IMG/VR virus record: IMGVR_UViG_3300045988_122711
DNA: 64,000 bases
Reading direction: 5' to 3' (one strand)
Origin: a virus
Position 1 is the first letter of the stretch; every line of letters begins with the position of its first letter. Shown piece by piece: positions 5,072 to 64,000 of this stretch. The notes beneath the pieces are model-generated. The model was not told the origin of the DNA. It made no database searches and saw nothing but the letters and a program-made list of their open reading frames with translations. The position numbers and the translations under genes were made by a program.

Positions 5072-6259
5072 ATGAAACTCGTTGAAAGATATATAGTTAA
5101 AGACAACCGGTTTGAGGATATTTGCCTCAAATCCGGTTTGTTGTATAATTATGTTCTTTACAACATTCGTCAAGGAATTTTTTCTGGTAACTATTTAAAG
5201 GAATTTGATTTATCAAACAAACTTTGCAAAGAAAACCAATTCGATTTCAGGAATTTACCTAATCATGTTTCACAGCAGGTAATTAAACAGGTATTTAAAA
5301 ACATAAAATCCTGGATGAGATTAAAGAAAGATTTTGAAAAGAATCCTTCGAAATACGGTAATCATCGTCCTCATCTTCCTTCGTATAAGAAGGGCAAAAA
5401 ACAAAACATGGTTGTTTTTACCAACTGTGATTGTAGGATAAAAGATGATAATCATATCCATTTTGTCAAAAACATAATCAAACCGATCAAAACAAATGTA
5501 AATAAAGATGAATTAAAACAAGTTAGAATAATACCTCAAGCTACCTGTTATGTAGTAGAGGTAGTTTATGAAAGAAAGGAAATTGATCTTGGTTTAGATA
5601 AAGACAATTTTCTTTCGATTGATTTAGGATTGAATAATTTATGTTCATGTATTAGTAATGTAGTTAATTCTTTCATTATAAACGGACGAGTTATGAAATC
5701 AGTAAATCAGTGGTACAATAAGAAGAAAGCTAAGTTGATGTCTTTCATTGGTAATAAGGGAACTTCAAATAGAATAAGAAAAATTACTTTGTTTAGAAAT
5801 TGTTGGATAGAAGACAAATTGCACAAAATCAGTAGATACATTGTAGACTTTTGTAAATCTAACAATATAGGAACAATCATCATCGGATTAAACAAAGAAT
5901 GGAAAAACAAGATAAATATTGGTAAACGAAATAATCAACATTTTGTTTCTATTCCTCATTCTAAGTTGATTGAAAAGATTGTTTACAAAGCAAAACTTTT
6001 AGGAATAGAGGTAATTACTCATGAGGAATCCTATACATCAAAGATTGATCATCTTGCTTTTGAACCTCTAAAGAAACAGGAATCCTACTTAGGTAGAAGG
6101 AAGAAACGTGGATTATTCCAAAGTTCTGTTGGAAAGATATTAAATGCTGACATAAACGGAGCTATCGGGATAGCAAGAAAAGTAATCGGTGATTCTTTTA
6201 TTGGAAAGATAATCGATAGTGGATTTGTGTTTAATCCAGTTAGAGTAAATATTTTGTGA
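5072..6259 (+). CDS. tnpB: TnpB-like (IS605 OrfB / Cas12-ancestor) RuvC-fold protein; Zn-finger absent and RuvC-II Glu apparently replaced
   Basis: P.YKKGKK..F motif; RuvC-I SIDLGL; HEESYTSK (TSK motif); RuvC-III NADINGAIGIARK; no CxxC pairs between RuvC-II/III; expected hhhEDLN is TIIIGLNKEW. Confidence 0.7.
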   Translation: MKLVERYIVKDNRFEDICLKSGLLYNYVLYNIRQGIFSGNYLKEFDLSNKLCKENQFDFRNLPNHVSQQVIKQVFKNIKSWMRLKKDFEKNPSKYGNHRPHLPSYKKGKKQNMVVFTNCDCRIKDDNHIHFVKNIIKPIKTNVNKDELKQVRIIPQATCYVVEVVYERKEIDLGLDKDNFLSIDLGLNNLCSCISNVVNSFIINGRVMKSVNQWYNKKKAKLMSFIGNKGTSNRIRKITLFRNCWIEDKLHKISRYIVDFCKSNNIGTIIIGLNKEWKNKINIGKRNNQHFVSIPHSKLIEKIVYKAKLLGIEVITHEESYTSKIDHLAFEPLKKQESYLGRRKKRGLFQSSVGKILNADINGAIGIARKVIGDSFIGKIIDSGFVFNPVRVNIL

Positions 6260-17000: not shown

Positions 17001-20000
17001 GAAAGTTATGCCACAAGAATGGAATCCATATACAAAAAGGCTGAAGAAGAATTAGGGCATCCAGTTTCTCAAACAACTAAAGAATATCTTAATGCTCTTT
17101 CCCGGCAAAAACGAATACTGAGGCAGCCTTTTATTGATAGCGGTGGTAATTTTGATGAGGTTGATTACTATAAGAGTAGTAACTACGAAGAAGAAGGACT
17201 GCTTCGTAAACAACGTAAGGAAGCAGCTTCGGAATACATATATGTTGGTACCAGACGTGTTGAAAAAACCGGCGACCAACTTAAGATGGCTAAAGAAATA
17301 CAAGCCATAAATGAAGTTTGGAGAAAAGAATCAAATAATGTCACTAATGCCGTATCAGAATCATTTTTGGAAAGATTGAGAACGATTCAGCGTGAGTCTG
17401 GAGGAGAAGCTGCGCTGAAGACACTTATGTTGGGAGGTCACCTGTCATTTAATGATCGGTTTTGGAATGATGTAGAATCGGAACAGTCGGCACGTACCGA
17501 ATCAAATAACAAGGCTTCGTATCTCAAAATGGCGCATGATATCATTAGTTCTACAACAAGTGATAGAGATGCGACTGACGTGGATTCTATTGTGAAAGAT
17601 ATAGAAAAAAATAAGGCCATTATCAAGGAAATAATCGGAAACAACCGCGATGTGGCTGATATCGGAGAAATTAACGAAGCGACATTTACCTCATCCGAAA
17701 GAGATGCTTTTAGGGCCGCATCTGAAGCTATTGAAGCCGATTACGCTATTTTGATAGATTATGCTAAGATGGTGGGTCTTGAAGATATTGATAAGTACCT
17801 TACTAAAAGCAGTAAGGCTGAAAACGAAGTAAATCAGTCTTATTTAAATGCTCTTGCTGACTCCAAGGAAGTGGAATGGAAGTTCGTACAACGTCATACT
17901 ACGGCGAAGAAAGCAAAAAGGATTCAGGCTTTAAGGGATAAGCTGTTTAAGGCTGCTGATAACCGATATCTGTTTACCGTATCTGAAACCAACTACCTGT
18001 CAGAAAAGCTTGGTATAAGCAAAGAATTAGACGGTAGAGATTTCAGGAATGCTGTTAATGCTAAGATGGCCAGCTTATTTTTAAATAATACAAGAGAAGA
18101 GGGTATAGAAGCTGACATAAAAGCGGGCATAGAAGAAGCTAATGCTATTGTTAATGAATTTGCCAGGAGCCAGGTTTTTTCGTACTATAAACGCATGGCG
18201 CCTACCGGATATGCGGCTATGATCGACAAAATAGGTCGAGGTGAGATAGATGTGGCGCAGATGGTTAAGGACGTACAAAACGGTACATCCACCCAAGATT
18301 ATGGCATGGACATATCGTACCTGTCTTTCGATCCTGCAAGGGCATGGGTGGCTGAATCTGAAGCCGAAAATAGCGGCCGTAATCCTGATTATGTAAAAGA
18401 TCATGGGTATGGTCATCGCATGCCTAAGAAAAGCCTGTATCGTGACGAATCGTATTTCAATGACTTTGGTATCAAGTATGATGCTGACGGTAATGAAGTT
18501 GCTACTAAAAACGTAGAGCAGTGGAATATGATTCAAAAACTCAAGGAAATAAAAAGACAATCCCTTGATCTATACAAAGAGCAGAGCCCGAACCTGTATG
18601 CTATTCCACAGATATCAAAACAAGACATAGAACGTATGGAAGGATTGGGTATTAACTTCAAAAATACGGTTCGTAATTTTGTATCAGATCTGTGCCTGGA
18701 CAGAGTAGACGATTCTCTATACGGTAAAACCAGGCAAGGAGAAGTATATGATCCGGAAGATAGACTTAGGTCTATACCTAAATACTACATATATGAATTG
18801 GAGAACCAAGATGATGTATCTCACGATTTTGGCTACTCTTATTCTATGCTTATGATGCAGTCATCGTTATATAACGAAAAGCAGAAGTCTATAGAGCTTG
18901 CCCAAGGACTGGAGCAGATGTTACTGAATAAACAATTTGAAGGCGGTAAGAAGGCTGAAGCAACCCAAGCATATCAGATGTTCAGGGACTTCTTCAACGA
19001 TCATTATTATGGCATTAGGATGAACACCAAAAAACTTACGGTGAACATCGGAGGATATACGGTAGACCTTACAAGAATTATGATGGCTGTTGAAAGATTT
19101 ATGTCGGTCATGAACTTGGCACTGTCTCCGTTTGTGGCAGCTACCGGCGCCTTAACAGGTCATATCAACCTCATCATGGAATCTGCCGTAGGACAGTATA
19201 TAAGCAAAGACTCCCTTAAATACGCATCGGCTGAATTTTCACGCCTTGCTCCATCTTGTATAGCAGAAACCGGAGACATAGATAGGAAAAGCAAATTATA
19301 TGTCATAGGTGAGAGAATGGGGATATTCAATATCCGAAATCGTATGTATGGTGCCGGATACAATAGAGCGGCCAGGACCTTAATGCGTTCGCCTATGTAT
19401 GCTTTTATGGAAATCCTGAACTACCCTCTTGATCCGCAGGTTATGATTGCTACTATGGACAATGTTCGTTATTACAAAGGTCGGTTCTACACGTTCCAAG
19501 ATTTCAAGATGGAAAAAGAACGTAATAAAGAACAGAGTACCATAAAAAGAGAATGGAACGCATTAAAAGATCGTACTTTATGGAGTATGGTAGACGTCGT
19601 GGATGGGAAGGTGGTTGTAAAGCCCGGATCAGGTGTTACTGTTGAGGAAGTTGAAACCCAGATGGCTATAACCAGGAATCAAGTCCGTAGCTTGTCGCAG
19701 ATATGTAACGGATCTTTGAATGAAGAAAACCGAACTGCCGCATCGCGCAACTGGATAGCCAGGTTCATGACCGCCCACCGAGGATGGTTGGTGCTGGCGG
19801 CTCAACGTCTGTGGAAAAGACGTGGCTTCAATTTCCAGACAATGCAAGAAGAGGAAGGGTTGTCAATTACGTTAAAGAATATGATAGCCAAAACATTTAG
19901 CCTGGCTTCCGAGTCTGGTATGAAAAACATCATAGATGCCTGGAACGAAAATAAAGACAATATGAATGAGGTAGAAAAAACTAATCTCAAACGCCTCAGT

Positions 20001-60009: not shown

Positions 60010-60187
60010 AATCTTTTGTTTTATTATCTACAAACTTATCTATATCGTCTCTTATTCTTTTTAGCACTCCGGCTATAATTTCCGGCATCTCTCCTTCGGT
60101 ACGGTTCAGAGTTTCTATCACCCCATCAATCCTACCAATTTGACGCCATAAGAAATTGGCGTCTTTCGCATTAAATTCCCCCATCAT
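59990..60187 (-). CDS. hypothetical protein
   Basis: ORF. Confidence 0.3.
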   Translation of the reverse strand: MMGEFNAKDANFLWRQIGRIDGVIETLNRTEGEMPEIIAGVLKRIRDDIDKFVDNKTKDYENIQE

Positions 60188-60419
60188 GTCTTATTTTACA
60201 GTAAACAACTTGCTTTTTTAAGCACCAGTCTTGCGATTCTGAGAGTGAACACCGTTCGGAGTTGTTAAAAAATATACAATCTTTGCAGAACATAAGAGGA
60301 TCTTCGTCGTCACCAACTACTTTGACATCATACTCTATGCCATACAATTTTAATCTAAATACATCTCCTGCTTCTTTAGAAGATAAATCCATGTCTGGAC
60401 TGAATGTTATTACTTCCAT
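60171..60419 (-). CDS. hypothetical protein
   Basis: ORF; conserved upstream motif. Confidence 0.4.
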   Translation of the reverse strand: MEVITFSPDMDLSSKEAGDVFRLKLYGIEYDVKVVGDDEDPLMFCKDCIFFNNSERCSLSESQDWCLKKQVVYCKIRHDGGI

Positions 60420-61493: not shown

Positions 61494-61817
61494 TCATATC
61501 GCTATCTCCTTCTTCTTTATGTTTATAGTTCTTCTATACAGGATCTCTCCGGTCGTAATATCCTGTGCACTTACACTAATACGAACACAGTCCTTTAACC
61601 AACTCGGTCTGTATTTAAGCAATTCTTTAGCACTCGTTCTTAATATCATCTCTTTGGCATCTGATACCGGCATAGACCTGTTGCTTATTAGCCTACTACT
61701 TTCCGAACCTGTAGAAGATACCCAATTTATCCAAATATAATGTATTGTCCTTTCCATCTTTTTTCTTTTTACGTTCCACAATAAACTGTCCTGGCTCTGC
61801 TCCGACCTACGTTCCAC
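61494..61817 (-). CDS. hypothetical protein
   Basis: ORF; weaker copy of upstream motif (GTAGGTCGGAGCAGAGCCAGG) 45 nt 5' of ATG. Confidence 0.35.
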   Translation of the reverse strand: MERRSEQSQDSLLWNVKRKKMERTIHYIWINWVSSTGSESSRLISNRSMPVSDAKEMILRTSAKELLKYRPSWLKDCVRISVSAQDITTGEILYRRTINIKKKEIAI

Positions 61818-61888
61818 CTACAACCGCAGGCCTTAGCCCAAGGCGCCGCCTACTCCCCCTCTATGGCAGCCTGTTCGTACCTACAACA

Positions 61889-62110
61889 TCAGTCTCCATC
61901 TATACAACTATTGCTATGTGATAACAAACATTTATTCTTATAACAATCATCAAAAATACACCTATCACAACTGTAATCCTTAACTTCTACACAGTTAACT
62001 ACCTTAGCATATACTATACCATCACTACCTTCTATTCCTTTCACCCCAAAAATAGAACCTTCTACCTCCTTACTCAAATCTAAGTCAGGCGCAAAGTCAT
62101 ATACGTTCAT
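61889..62110 (-). CDS. hypothetical Cys-rich protein
   Basis: ORF. Confidence 0.35.
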   Translation of the reverse strand: MNVYDFAPDLDLSKEVEGSIFGVKGIEGSDGIVYAKVVNCVEVKDYSCDRCIFDDCYKNKCLLSHSNSCIDGD

Positions 62111-62181
62111 GTTGTTTATGTTTTAATTGTTATACATTCCGATTGAAAAAAATACTCACATAATACAGTCCTTAACCCTTA

Positions 62182-62390
62182 CCTACAGAATACTGTTTTA
62201 AAAACGCTGTAAGTCTTAATTTTGTTGGAAAATTCTACATTATGCTGTTTTAAAGCACTGCAATCCTTAATTTTGTTTGAAGAACCTACAGAATGCTGTT
62301 TTAAAACGCTGATCTGTTGAATTTTGCGGGAAGAACCTACAGAATGCTGTTTTAAAACGCTGATCTGTTGAATTTTGCGGGAAGAGAGTG
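62182..62390. repeat. four tandem ~51-bp direct repeats (two perfect, two diverged): CCTACAGAATGCTGTTTTAAAACGCTGATCTGTTGAATTTTGCGGGAAGAA
   Basis: period 51 seen directly; units at ~62182, 62234, 62285, 62336. Confidence 0.85.
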
Positions 62391-62569
62391 CCCTCCCTCT
62401 CCCCCTCTCCAACCCCGTCTAATCCTCTGTCTTTCCGCATAGAACCTGCGCTCTCGGTCTCACTACAGGCATACGGAGAGCGCTACAAGCTTATACTCTG
62501 GCATGAAGTATGGGGTATTTAGAGATAATATCATTCCATAGAGAGAATAGAGAGCCTTCAGCCCACGCC

Positions 62570-62755
62570 CTACCGCCTGCTCCTCCTATCAAGATAGATA
62601 TTTAAGCCTATAATCAAAGCCAATAAAGAAAAGCAAAAGACCATTACAATATTATACTGATCCGGTCCGTACTCCAACATAGAGCGAATACCAACCGACA
62701 GAAAATACAAGTCAGCTACTAATAAAAACCACCACATAAAATAAAAAAAATACAA
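62570..62755 (-). CDS. small two-TM membrane protein (speculative)
   Basis: hydrophobic ORF in otherwise non-coding region. Confidence 0.25.
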   Translation of the reverse strand: MYFFYFMWWFLLVADLYFLSVGIRSMLEYGPDQYNIVMVFCFSLLALIIGLNIYLDRRSRR

Positions 62756-63108
62756 TAAGTATGTCCGAAAATACGGGGATTATAAAACCTAACTAATTGA
62801 TAATCAAGCATACATAATTTTTAAGAAAAATACAATAAGCCTAATTTTCAATCTATAGAGACGAAAAAGGCGGAATCCGGAACCCTATTTTTGGCCAGAA
62901 AACCGCATAAAGTTTCGTTTTAGACCAATTTTAACGACATGATATAGACAAAATACCGGCATTATATCCAAACTATCCTATTTTAGTTTCGTTTTAGACC
63001 AATATAGCTTACATCCGCCGTTCACTCTCAGAATATCCTACCCGTAAATAGAAAGAGTAGGATACAAAAATAGGGCTGCTCCGATATTCGAAACAACCCT
63101 ACTCCTGT

Positions 63109-63315
63109 TTAAATACTGTTTATGTTTTCCTTCACGTAAGTTCGTGATGTATGGACTTTACGTTTGCATTTGTCCTTTCCCGTATCGGCATGATACGCTT
63201 CTTTGAGATCACGATACAACATAAATTCCCGATACGCTCTTTTCCGCTTTTCTTTAGCTTCTTTCCTGGACAGACCGCGGACGTCTACCATATAAGATTT
63301 AAATTTCCTTTCCAT
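63109..63315 (-). CDS. small basic protein (possible DNA-binding regulator)
   Basis: ORF, Lys/Arg-rich. Confidence 0.35.
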   Translation of the reverse strand: MERKFKSYMVDVRGLSRKEAKEKRKRAYREFMLYRDLKEAYHADTGKDKCKRKVHTSRTYVKENINSI

Positions 63316-63340
63316 TTTCTTTATGCTTTAATTATGATTA

Positions 63341-63510
63341 ACTCCAGCGGTTAAGAGCTTCGATATAGAAACCCTCCGCCTCTTTATACTCATTTTCACT
63401 GAGTGTTTCCACCGTCTCGATATAGTTACGCAATGTTATTTTTACGCAGATGTTTTTAGATTTATTGAACGCTTCAGTTAAAGCGTTGATCATTTCTTTC
63501 TTTTCCATGT
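63341..63510 (-). CDS. small hypothetical protein (56 aa)
   Basis: ATG ORF MEKKEMINALTEAF...; conserved motif 34 nt upstream. Confidence 0.3.
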
Positions 63511-63532
63511 TATTATATTGTTTATAATTTAG

Positions 63533-63560
63533 AGGTTGCTCCGGAATCGAACCGAACGCG
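63533..63560 (-). promoter_or_regulatory. conserved promoter-like element copy C (CGCGTTCGGTTCGATTCCGGAGCAACCTC)
   Basis: 34 nt upstream of ATG 63510. Confidence 0.4.
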
Positions 63561-64000
63561 CATTCCTATCCTGTACGAATTTTATGCTACAACCAACAGC
63601 CCGTAATTAGTACGTAGTTCTTGTGTACAGGCCCGTACTATGTTGTTATTATATTTTCCGTCTGCTACACAACTTAGCCACAAATAAAGGCGATTGTGTC
63701 CTTGCGTTTTGATACGGCACGTACCTACATGGTAGGCTACATGCTTGTACCCTGTAATTTAATCTACAGCCTTGTTCTATTTTTCGTGTAAGCAAGTAAG
63801 ACACGTTTCGATCTGGAGATAAACCTCGTACAACGGCATGTTTTCCAAACTGTAATCACATACCTAACATAAACTATACCTATTCGGATAGTCCATGCAG
63901 TAATACCAGCCCTTTAATTGCCAACGGCAAGGGCAACGGTATATCTATCTCCAATATGTAAAATAACTCTCTATTTTGTCAGCTTCAGTCTAAAGCATAC

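Follow-up and report, generated by a model that had tools for sequence, protein, structure and literature searches.

What might four tandem 51-bp repeats, placed near the right-hand end of a phage sequence, be for? The question is posed by the window, by which we mean the whole stretch of viral DNA that was analysed (64,000 nucleotides; IMG/VR record IMGVR_UViG_3300045988_122711). The original prediction, made from the letters of this DNA, likened the repeats to iterons and considered them typical of phage replication origins or packaging regions. Both proposals are weighed below, together with readings in which the repeats have no sequence-specific function, encode a protein or an RNA, partition a plasmid-like form, or control transcription.

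Setting of the array in the phage genome

The window is 90% identical to csAssE-Sib (OR575929; 151,256 bp, human gut), its only phage match in GenBank. csAssE-Sib is an epsilon crAss-like phage (PMC11054128), and the window, judged by its sequence, comes from an epsilon crAss-like phage as well. Its structural genes, at 1–21 kb, are on the plus strand; from ~22 kb to the end all genes are on the minus strand, and this block includes a DnaB-like helicase, a second helicase, an exonuclease and a methyltransferase. The csAssE-Sib genome has a plus-strand block at 17.4–110.8 kb and a minus-strand block that runs from 110.9 kb, across the record ends, to 17.4 kb; the array is within the latter, at ~150.46–150.62 kb. 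Base 1 of the csAssE-Sib record was set from a PhageTerm terminus (p = 1.5e-22; PMC11054128). With both record ends aligned, this terminus falls at 63026|63027 of the window, 636 bp to the right of the array, and this position is probably a physical genome end. The features around the array are the following.

61889..62110, minus strand: first gene downstream of the array, for a 73-aa Cys-rich protein (86 aa in most relatives)
62111..62180, minus strand: leader, from the array to the start codon of the first gene (from the sequence and relatives)
62181..62390, no strand: tandem array of four ~51-bp units (from Tandem Repeats Finder (TRF), a repeat search and the same locus in relatives)
62391..62415, no strand: C-rich polypyrimidine tract CCCTCCCTCTCCCCCTCTCCAACCC, the fixed right border of the array (from the sequence)
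62570..62737, minus strand: 55-aa two-TM ORF (MWWFLLVADLYF...), between the terminus and the array; a CDS in the csAssE-Sib annotation
63109-63315 and 63338-63508, minus strand: two small genes, annotated in csAssE-Sib

Run on the window, TRF recovered the array at 62181–62385 as 4.0 copies with a period of 51, 79% matches and a score of 234, by far the strongest tandem repeat of the 64 kb. Its consensus, ACCTACAGAATGCTGTTTTAAAACGCTGATCTGTTGAATTTTGCGGGAAGA, is that of the original prediction shifted by one base, and the coordinates and consensus given there are correct. A repeat search placed the unit starts at ~62181, 62233, 62284 and 62335 (spacings of 52, 51 and 51). The description of two identical and two diverged copies holds too: units 3 and 4 differ in the final base only, and units 1 and 2 are diverged, with a 1-nt insertion in unit 1. 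When the 18-nt core TGCTGTTTTAAAACGCTG was searched with up to 3 mismatches, the window gave three matches against an expectation of 0.01, and all of them lie within the array.

To the left, 72 nt separate the array from the gene of the 73-aa Cys-rich protein, the array being on the upstream side of this gene. The gene heads a run of ~45 small minus-strand genes, unassigned in function, that leads to the replisome genes. The Cys-rich protein has no Pfam match, and its AF2 model (mean pLDDT of 59) is too poor for a fold search; no Pfam domain was found in any of the ten small proteins that flank the array. The intervening leader resembles a decayed unit and holds a poly(A/T) run of variable length.

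To the right, the original prediction saw a 1.9-kb, mostly non-coding end. This is overstated. The stretches 62111–62569 and 62738–63108 are truly non-coding, but the region also holds the 55-aa ORF and the two small genes. The 55-aa ORF is intact in most relatives, where its variable sites number 17, 12 and 31 at codon positions 1, 2 and 3, respectively; the substitution pattern across this predicted ORF (62570–62737) is coding. The statement that the repeats lie next to AT-rich DNA is true only loosely, since the adjoining flank has 51–54% GC and the AT-rich minimum (25–27% GC, at 62700–62850, partly coding) is 300–450 bp off.

Anatomy and turnover of the repeat units

In scans of IMG/VR, more than 170 related contigs (~80–155 kb) proved to have the core motif and the neighbouring gene, and nearly all carry the array at the corresponding locus. 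Conservation in close relatives, on which the original prediction had staked itself, is therefore borne out. A scan with block B saw arrays only in the same gut phage group, and a protein search with the neighbouring Cys-rich protein listed only relatives at 75–96% identity. A scan of bacterial genomes was set aside; its pattern was over-degenerate, and single chance matches were all that appeared among the matches listed.

Comparison of copy number in these related phages reveals a rapid turnover. The 80 loci that include both flanks carry 59 distinct arrays, in which A blocks (that is, full units) number 2–9 and B blocks 2–17; none of these loci has lost the array, the minimum being two units. 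The array of csAssE-Sib, for example, has three units, namely units 1 and 2 of the window and a single copy of the unit that is duplicated in the window. The changes are of two types. First, whole units are duplicated. Second, only a sub-unit of 17–22 bp is amplified, such as TTGAATTTTGTTGGTAGGGAG, which occurs seven times, and one contig reaches 17 B blocks in all. Reiteration of a 21–22-bp B sub-unit is seen in some relatives only, and the window has none.

The turnover has a direction. Divergence between adjacent units is greatest at the gene-proximal end (mean identity 0.61; 0 of 59 pairs identical), and likeness is greatest at the opposite end (mean identity 0.76; six pairs identical). 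Junctions of B–B duplications are concentrated in the last fifth of the array, beside the C-rich tract (37 of 72), with none in the first fifth. Taken together, the polarity of identity and of the junctions suggests that new copies arise beside the C-rich tract at 62391–62415 and decay toward the gene. All relatives have this tract, at varying lengths; its minus strand is G-rich and carries a G4-type motif. The 720 bp to the right of the array are conserved like the neighbouring genes and have essentially no indels. At the other end, some relatives have a degenerate unit in place of the leader, and this unit comes within ~35 nt of the ATG.

The logo of the 87 distinct units collected from relatives, aaaccTACAtaATgCTGTTTTAAAaCgCTgatctgtTgAATTTTGTtGGaAgaaac, resolves the unit into three conserved segments, CTACAnAAT, CTGTTTTAAAnCnCT and TnAATTTTGTnGGAA, the second of which includes a 10-bp AT palindrome, GTTTTAAAAC. 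The corresponding elements in the window are listed here.

62195..62205, no strand: block A core of unit 1, GTTTTAAAAAC, the palindrome plus one extra A (from the sequence and the unit logo)
62247-62256, 62298-62307 and 62349-62358: 10-bp palindromes GTTTTAAA(A/G)C of units 2–4 (from the sequence)
62217..62224, plus strand: block B of unit 1, TAATTTTG, an exact match to the sigma-A -7 box TAnnTTTG
62268-62275, plus strand: block B of unit 2, TAATTTTG
62319-62326 and 62370-62377, plus strand: block B of units 3 and 4, GAATTTTG, a 7/8 match to TAnnTTTG

Within block A, positions G0, T2–T4 and A6–A7 are invariant and C9 is kept in 84 of the 87 units; the inner palindrome is retained in 84–87 of them. 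Block B, a box of the form (T/G)AATTTTGTnGGAA, has AATTTTG invariant in all 87. Spacing is fixed as well: of 179 A-to-B distances 162 measure 22 bp, and of 123 distances from a B block to the following A block 99 measure 29 bp. By comparison, the 7-bp spacer between segments 2 and 3 is variable, defining at least four subfamilies of units, and the unit ends are also free. That invariant positions sit beside freely varying ones in old, diverged units indicates a putative sequence-specific recognition rather than recent duplication alone. A hairpin or cruciform formed by the unit was considered and rejected, as the outer inverted repeat is not maintained and pairs in only 33–66 of the 87 units.

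A PWM scan of the complete 151-kb csAssE-Sib genome found the unit, and each of its blocks, in the array only, and in the 64-kb window the motif is likewise confined to the array. Because unit and blocks are absent elsewhere in both, the array would act as a single-locus cis element; for the same reason, a dispersed promoter or operator was rejected.

Could the array nevertheless be a near-neutral, slippage-prone VNTR, maintained by recombination or by replication stalling at the polypurine/polypyrimidine tract, with its conservation reflecting recent ancestry and homogenisation? The extreme turnover of copy number and composition (59 variants at 80 loci), the origin of new duplications at one end beside the C-rich tract with decay toward the gene, and the commonness of partial-unit amplifications are all what this account would predict. 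It does not readily explain, however, why old diverged units keep three segments and their spacing while the spacer has split into at least four subfamilies, why the array is never lost from relatives with both flanks and never falls below two units, or why the surrounding 720 bp are highly conserved without indels, which shows the locus to be otherwise constrained. We therefore consider pure neutrality very unlikely.

The repeats do not encode a protein. In 36 of the 59 array variants all six reading frames are closed, in the rest the open frame differs from one to another, and 39 of 127 unit spacings among the variants are not multiples of 3. The 77-aa ORF at 62179–62412 is thus the artefact that the original prediction took it to be. 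CRISPR is excluded as well, again in agreement with that prediction: the units run head-to-tail, with no unique spacers between them. Nor is the array a structured RNA. No Rfam family was matched at the gathering or E<=5 thresholds (a chance match to FsrA scored 17 bits against a cutoff of 80), the conserved 185-nt flank folds no better than shuffled sequences on either strand (z = -0.37 and +0.31), and a hairpin at 62448–62483 is broken, without compensation, in about half of the relatives. In sum, the array is a conserved, non-coding element found at one place in the genome; its units are under internal constraint, and it evolves fast and with polarity.

Replication, packaging and partition

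In the first proposal of the original prediction, the units, or the 21-bp B sub-units, would be origin iterons at which a phage initiator melts nearby DNA and loads the phage DnaB-like helicase. The array resembles the iterons of theta origins (lambda ori, P1 oriR, R6K/pPS10-type) in several ways: tandem direct repeats, a conserved core, uniqueness in the genome, variable copy number, and a helical phase in which the 21–22-bp sub-repeat, in those relatives that reiterate it, amounts to two helical turns, as in classical iterons. However, the unit here is 51 bp and tripartite, as opposed to iterons of 17–22 bp, and the array lacks an adjacent initiator gene, a DUE, DnaA boxes and a skew inflection. 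An AT-rich stretch (25–27% GC) does lie 300–450 bp from the array, and a polypurine/polypyrimidine tract abuts it, but the adjoining flank itself is GC-rich and is not a DUE. No DnaA box (TTATCCACA, up to 1 mismatch) was found across 61736–63673, which covers ~450 bp on the gene side and ~1.3 kb on the terminus side.

The gene content of the phage can be read in both directions. It codes for a helicase, a primase-like protein, an SSB and a beta clamp and for no polymerase (PMC11054128); epsilon crAss-like phages, having no DNA polymerase of their own, must recruit the host replisome. Yet no initiator-like gene adjoins the array, and the replisome genes (DnaB-like helicase, primase-like protein and others) are more than 22 kb away. 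Cumulative GC skew, calculated for csAssE-Sib, has its minimum at 17,716 and its maximum at 110,658 and makes no turn at the array (~150.5 kb). These extremes are 18 and 40 kb from the array and coincide with the divergent and convergent gene junctions; skew follows gene orientation exactly in this genome, so that it is weak evidence on the origin and no disproof. Direct repeats are the only one of the defining features of an iteron origin that the array displays. With the skew extremes elsewhere, no DnaA boxes, no initiator or Par-like protein nearby and the replisome genes distant, the origin proposal did not hold up well, and we regard it as rather unlikely. Origins do coincide with promoters in several phages, including T7, T4 and lactococcal c2.

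The second proposal, packaging, fared somewhat differently, in that a packaging-related signal was located in the neighbourhood: 636 bp separate the array from the PhageTerm terminus of csAssE-Sib. On the far side of this terminus, at 2.07 kb, is another VNTR, unrelated to the array and with a 31-bp period (csAssE-Sib 2066–2176), so that two arrays bracket the terminus region. The array also occurs at no other place in the genome. The array might then be an accessory element in packaging or terminus processing, either as a platform for the small terminase or another factor, or as one of two arrays that flank a terminal repeat. A comparable arrangement is that of T7, whose terminal repeat is flanked by the short-repeat arrays SRL and SRR, with 7-bp units. 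Two unrelated arrays likewise bracket the terminus region here, at -636 bp and +2,066 bp, but their units are longer (51 and 31 bp versus 7 bp). Cultured crAss-like phages can have kilobase-sized direct terminal repeats (DTRs); among them, crAss001 has short DTRs, DAC15 an exact DTR of 1,842 bp, and crAss002 is packaged by a pac headful mechanism.

Against a packaging role for the array itself, 636 bp is far for a TerS recognition site, and TerS/TerL are encoded at 20.1–23.2 kb of csAssE-Sib, which puts them at a distance of ~20 kb from its terminus. Nothing similar to the array was found near the ends of DAC15 and crAss001, and no IMG/VR contig end among those examined coincides with the terminus. 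Moreover, there is a pair of repeats that fits better.

62911-62929 and 62985-63003, no strand: two identical 19-bp direct repeats AGTTTCGTTTTAGACCAAT (from a repeat search)

These repeats end 23 bp before the terminus-equivalent position 63026|63027 and span 23–115 bp from the cut. Under an approximate wedge model, the 105 bp that contain them score as the most curved DNA in the final 9 kb (z = -5.9), and no curvature is predicted for the array. They are the better candidate for a packaging site. The original prediction is thus upheld in part: the repeats are iteron-like and a packaging-related signal lies in their vicinity, but a part of the array itself in packaging is, in our judgement, improbable.

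Contig ends were also considered as physical termini and rejected; two clusters of ends in IMG/VR coincide with the two tandem arrays and represent assembly breaks. Array units occur at both ends of some contigs (L034/L063 and L042/L058), and these ends too are breaks at tandem repeats rather than physical ends.

Tandem repeats of about this size also serve as centromeres, as in F sopC, with its 12 repeats of 43 bp. A partition site would suit a plasmid-like (pseudolysogenic) form of the phage, a lifestyle proposed for the prototypic crAssphage (PMC10983915) and suggested for epsilon phages (PMC11054128). As in sopC and other repeat centromeres, the array consists of tandem units in the 43–51-bp range with a short palindrome in each, and it is unique in the genome. 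But unlike F, the phage has no detectable ParA/ParB genes: a Pfam scan that took in candidate ATPases and DNA-binding proteins gave no ParA/ParB-type protein, the two ATPase candidates proved to be a coiled-coil protein and an SMC/RecF-like ATPase, and no par operon adjoins the array. A centromere-like role is, in our view, highly improbable.

A possible promoter- or operator-like bank at the head of the early-type genes

The reading that we favour, tentatively and with somewhat less than even confidence, is that the array is a reiterated protein-binding bank, promoter- or operator-like, that controls entry into the early operon. Several observations support it. Across 87 distinct units three segments are near-invariant with fixed spacing, and the spacer and unit ends are free. 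The array persists in nearly every relative despite its turnover, and its motif is confined to this one locus. It is also directly upstream of the first gene in a long co-directional run of small genes. Since it lies between the genome end and the first early-type genes, it is where control of an early operon would be expected. Indeed, early operons are found at the genome end in crAss001 and phi14:2, and DAC15 has a similar layout, with its DTR followed by small minus-strand genes.

Under this reading, the array would be a lineage-specific, cis-acting element in which a composite module, recognised by a polymerase or by a protein that binds DNA sequence-specifically, is reiterated, and its site would be a sub-terminal control region heading the early-gene block. 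With periods of 51 bp (units) and 21–22 bp (sub-units), one site after another would face roughly the same side of the helix. The units might be occupied by the host RNA polymerase holoenzyme, by a dimeric regulator or by both. Leftward transcription that begins at the genome end would arrive at the ~45 small early-type genes only by way of the array, so that occupancy of the units could set the amount and timing of operon expression, whether by occlusion, by a roadblock or by divergent or antisense firing. Copy number, altered by slippage at the C-tract end, would then tune the strength of control and make the array an evolvable tuning knob. That a protein binds, what that protein would be and how it would affect early transcription is what we infer from these patterns.

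The host side of the argument comes from promoter sequence. The Bacteroidetes sigma-A factor recognises a -7 consensus of TAnnTTTG, with a -33 element that is weak or absent and dispensable (PMC7366714). Block B equals TAnnTTTG in 34 of the 87 units and matches it at 7 of 8 positions in the remainder; in the window it reads TAATTTTG or GAATTTTG, with AATTTTG invariant. The phage uses the same box at its own genes, where TAnnTTTG occurs in sense, 15–40 nt upstream of many start codons. In relatives with the second type of leader, no -7 box lies between the array and the ATG, and leftward transcription would therefore start in the array or pass through it.

Several observations weigh against the favoured reading. 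First, the -7-like boxes belong to the plus strand and run antisense to all of the local genes, and downstream of them this strand has no plausible ORF, no Rfam match and a fold no better than shuffled (z = -0.37). Second, a search for TTTG-N18-22-TANNTTTG gave no site in the array; where a -33 TTTG would be expected, 19–21 bp upstream of the -7 box, the sequence reads GCTG. In these respects (no -33 TTTG, antisense orientation, no downstream product) the array departs from Bacteroidetes sigma-A promoters. Third, the genome has ~164 TAnnTTTG sites, so a match inside an AT-rich conserved motif could be coincidence. Fourth, the motif is strictly single-locus, which is more typical of ori, pac or par, as phage operators and promoters are often multi-locus. 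Finally, no candidate binding protein emerged, the flanking proteins being without domains and the AF2 model of the Cys-rich neighbour being poor.

Clustered early promoters are familiar from other phages, for example A1–A3 of T7, ~500–750 bp from the left end, and P1–P3 of N4. Like these, the array is sub-terminal, 636–845 bp from the terminus, and precedes the first early-type genes; in contrast to them, its sole recognisable element, the -7 box, faces away, and its units are true sequence repeats. The highly expressed, early, non-coding intergenic regions of phi14:2 are similar, in that they too are extended and conserved non-coding stretches close to where the early region begins, but no repeat array is reported there, and no signal of RNA structure is seen here.

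Two variants assign the array to other machinery at the same border. It could be an entry or promoter platform for an injected virion RNA polymerase, or a transcription-primed origin with an R-loop at the array border, formed as leftward transcription passes through the G-rich tract. Opening would, in either variant, take place at the GTTTTAAAAC palindromes, which melt easily, and the strength of early expression or of initiation would be set by copy number. We hold this pair of variants to be quite unlikely.

The array is previously undescribed; the published account of csAssE-Sib makes no mention of it (PMC11054128). For epsilon crAss-like phages no cis-acting site, be it an origin, an early promoter or a packaging signal, has been experimentally defined, and no motif is known for the early promoters that the crAss virion RNA polymerase uses. 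The array provides a conserved, unique and delimited element between a mapped terminus and early-type genes, and is directly testable. There are practical consequences too. Short-read assemblies break at the array and at the second VNTR ~3 kb away, which can mimic terminal repeats in completeness calls. At the same time, the rapid turnover of copy number makes the array a natural strain marker for these abundant gut phages.

Repeats and hairpin at the terminus

The junction 63026/63027, which aligns with the PhageTerm-set terminus of the sister phage csAssE-Sib, has a repeat pair on one side and a hairpin on the other:

62911-62929 and 62985-63003: two identical copies of a 19-bp direct repeat, AGTTTCGTTTTAGACCAAT, 74 bp apart
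about 63035-63063: hairpin with an 8-bp stem, TATCCTAC...GTAGGATA, immediately past the junction

The AGTTTCGTTTTAGACCAAT pair ends 23 bp short of the junction, and an approximate model places it in the 105 bp with the strongest curvature anywhere in the window's last 9 kb. For a pac/cos site, one of the roles that the original prediction had offered for the 51-bp array, or for a DTR boundary, these terminus-side repeats and the hairpin are a better candidate than that array.

Farther past the terminus, a minus-strand sequence at about 63536-63600 (GGTTGCTCCGGAATCGAACCG...) resembles the T-arm and acceptor 3' half of a tRNA, with a possible 5' acceptor partner ~60 nt upstream. A normal tRNA would need more length than this, neither ARAGORN nor Rfam gave a match, and the corresponding region is spanned by a CDS in the csAssE-Sib annotation.

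Array borders and neighbouring genes

Two features lie between the terminus and the 51-bp array:

62391-62415: polypyrimidine C-tract; the minus strand is G-rich with a G-quadruplex-type motif
62570-62737, minus strand: conserved 55-aa ORF, MWWFLLVADLYFLSVGIRSMLEYGPDQYNIVMVFCFSLLALIIGLNIYLDRRSRR, with two hydrophobic helices

The right border of the array is fixed at the C-tract, whose length differs between relatives and beside which duplications of the array repeats newly arise; the tract may be prone to fork stalling or R-loops. On the other side, the first downstream gene has in its leader an A/T homopolymer run (62145-62152) of 7 to 11 nt across relatives, and in some relatives the entire leader is swapped for a degenerate repeat unit. 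The flank beyond the C-tract is conserved except at 62447-62467, where linked sites (62447 T/C, 62448 G/A, 62452 T/C, 62456 G/C and 62467 A/C) define two haplotypes, both of intermediate frequency (about 19-38 of 65 sequences). This pattern suggests recombination between lineages.

Substitutions in the 55-aa ORF follow a coding-type pattern, and it would be the first gene past the terminus on the inward-reading strand. The Cys-rich gene downstream of the array (61889-62110, minus strand) encodes 73 aa in the window, as opposed to 86 aa in most relatives, whose protein has in addition a conserved WxCRYEQAAIEGE at its C terminus; the gene has a paralogue with 40% identity at 60171-60419. A plus-strand TnpB/IS605-family transposase-like ORF (phrog_506) sits inside the structural block at 5072-6259; in csAssE-Sib, other parts of the genome contain several copies of TnpB as well as a complete DGR.

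A second array and contig ends

The terminus region is bracketed by two arrays, the 51-bp array and an unrelated one ~1.1 kb outside the window:

csAssE-Sib 2066-2176: tandem array of TCTCTCTCATCACATAAACATTTTCTCACA, 31-bp period, 3.6 copies

In csAssE-Sib it comes after ~490 bp of AT-rich non-coding DNA in which GAAAACGCGTTTC repeats occur, and it sits where IMG/VR contig ends form a second cluster. Units of the 51-bp array were found on both ends of near-full-length IMG/VR contigs, as the paired loci L034/L063 and L042/L058 (150,298 and 139,243 bp). Automated completeness calls could mis-score such an end overlap of tandem-repeat units as a direct terminal repeat.
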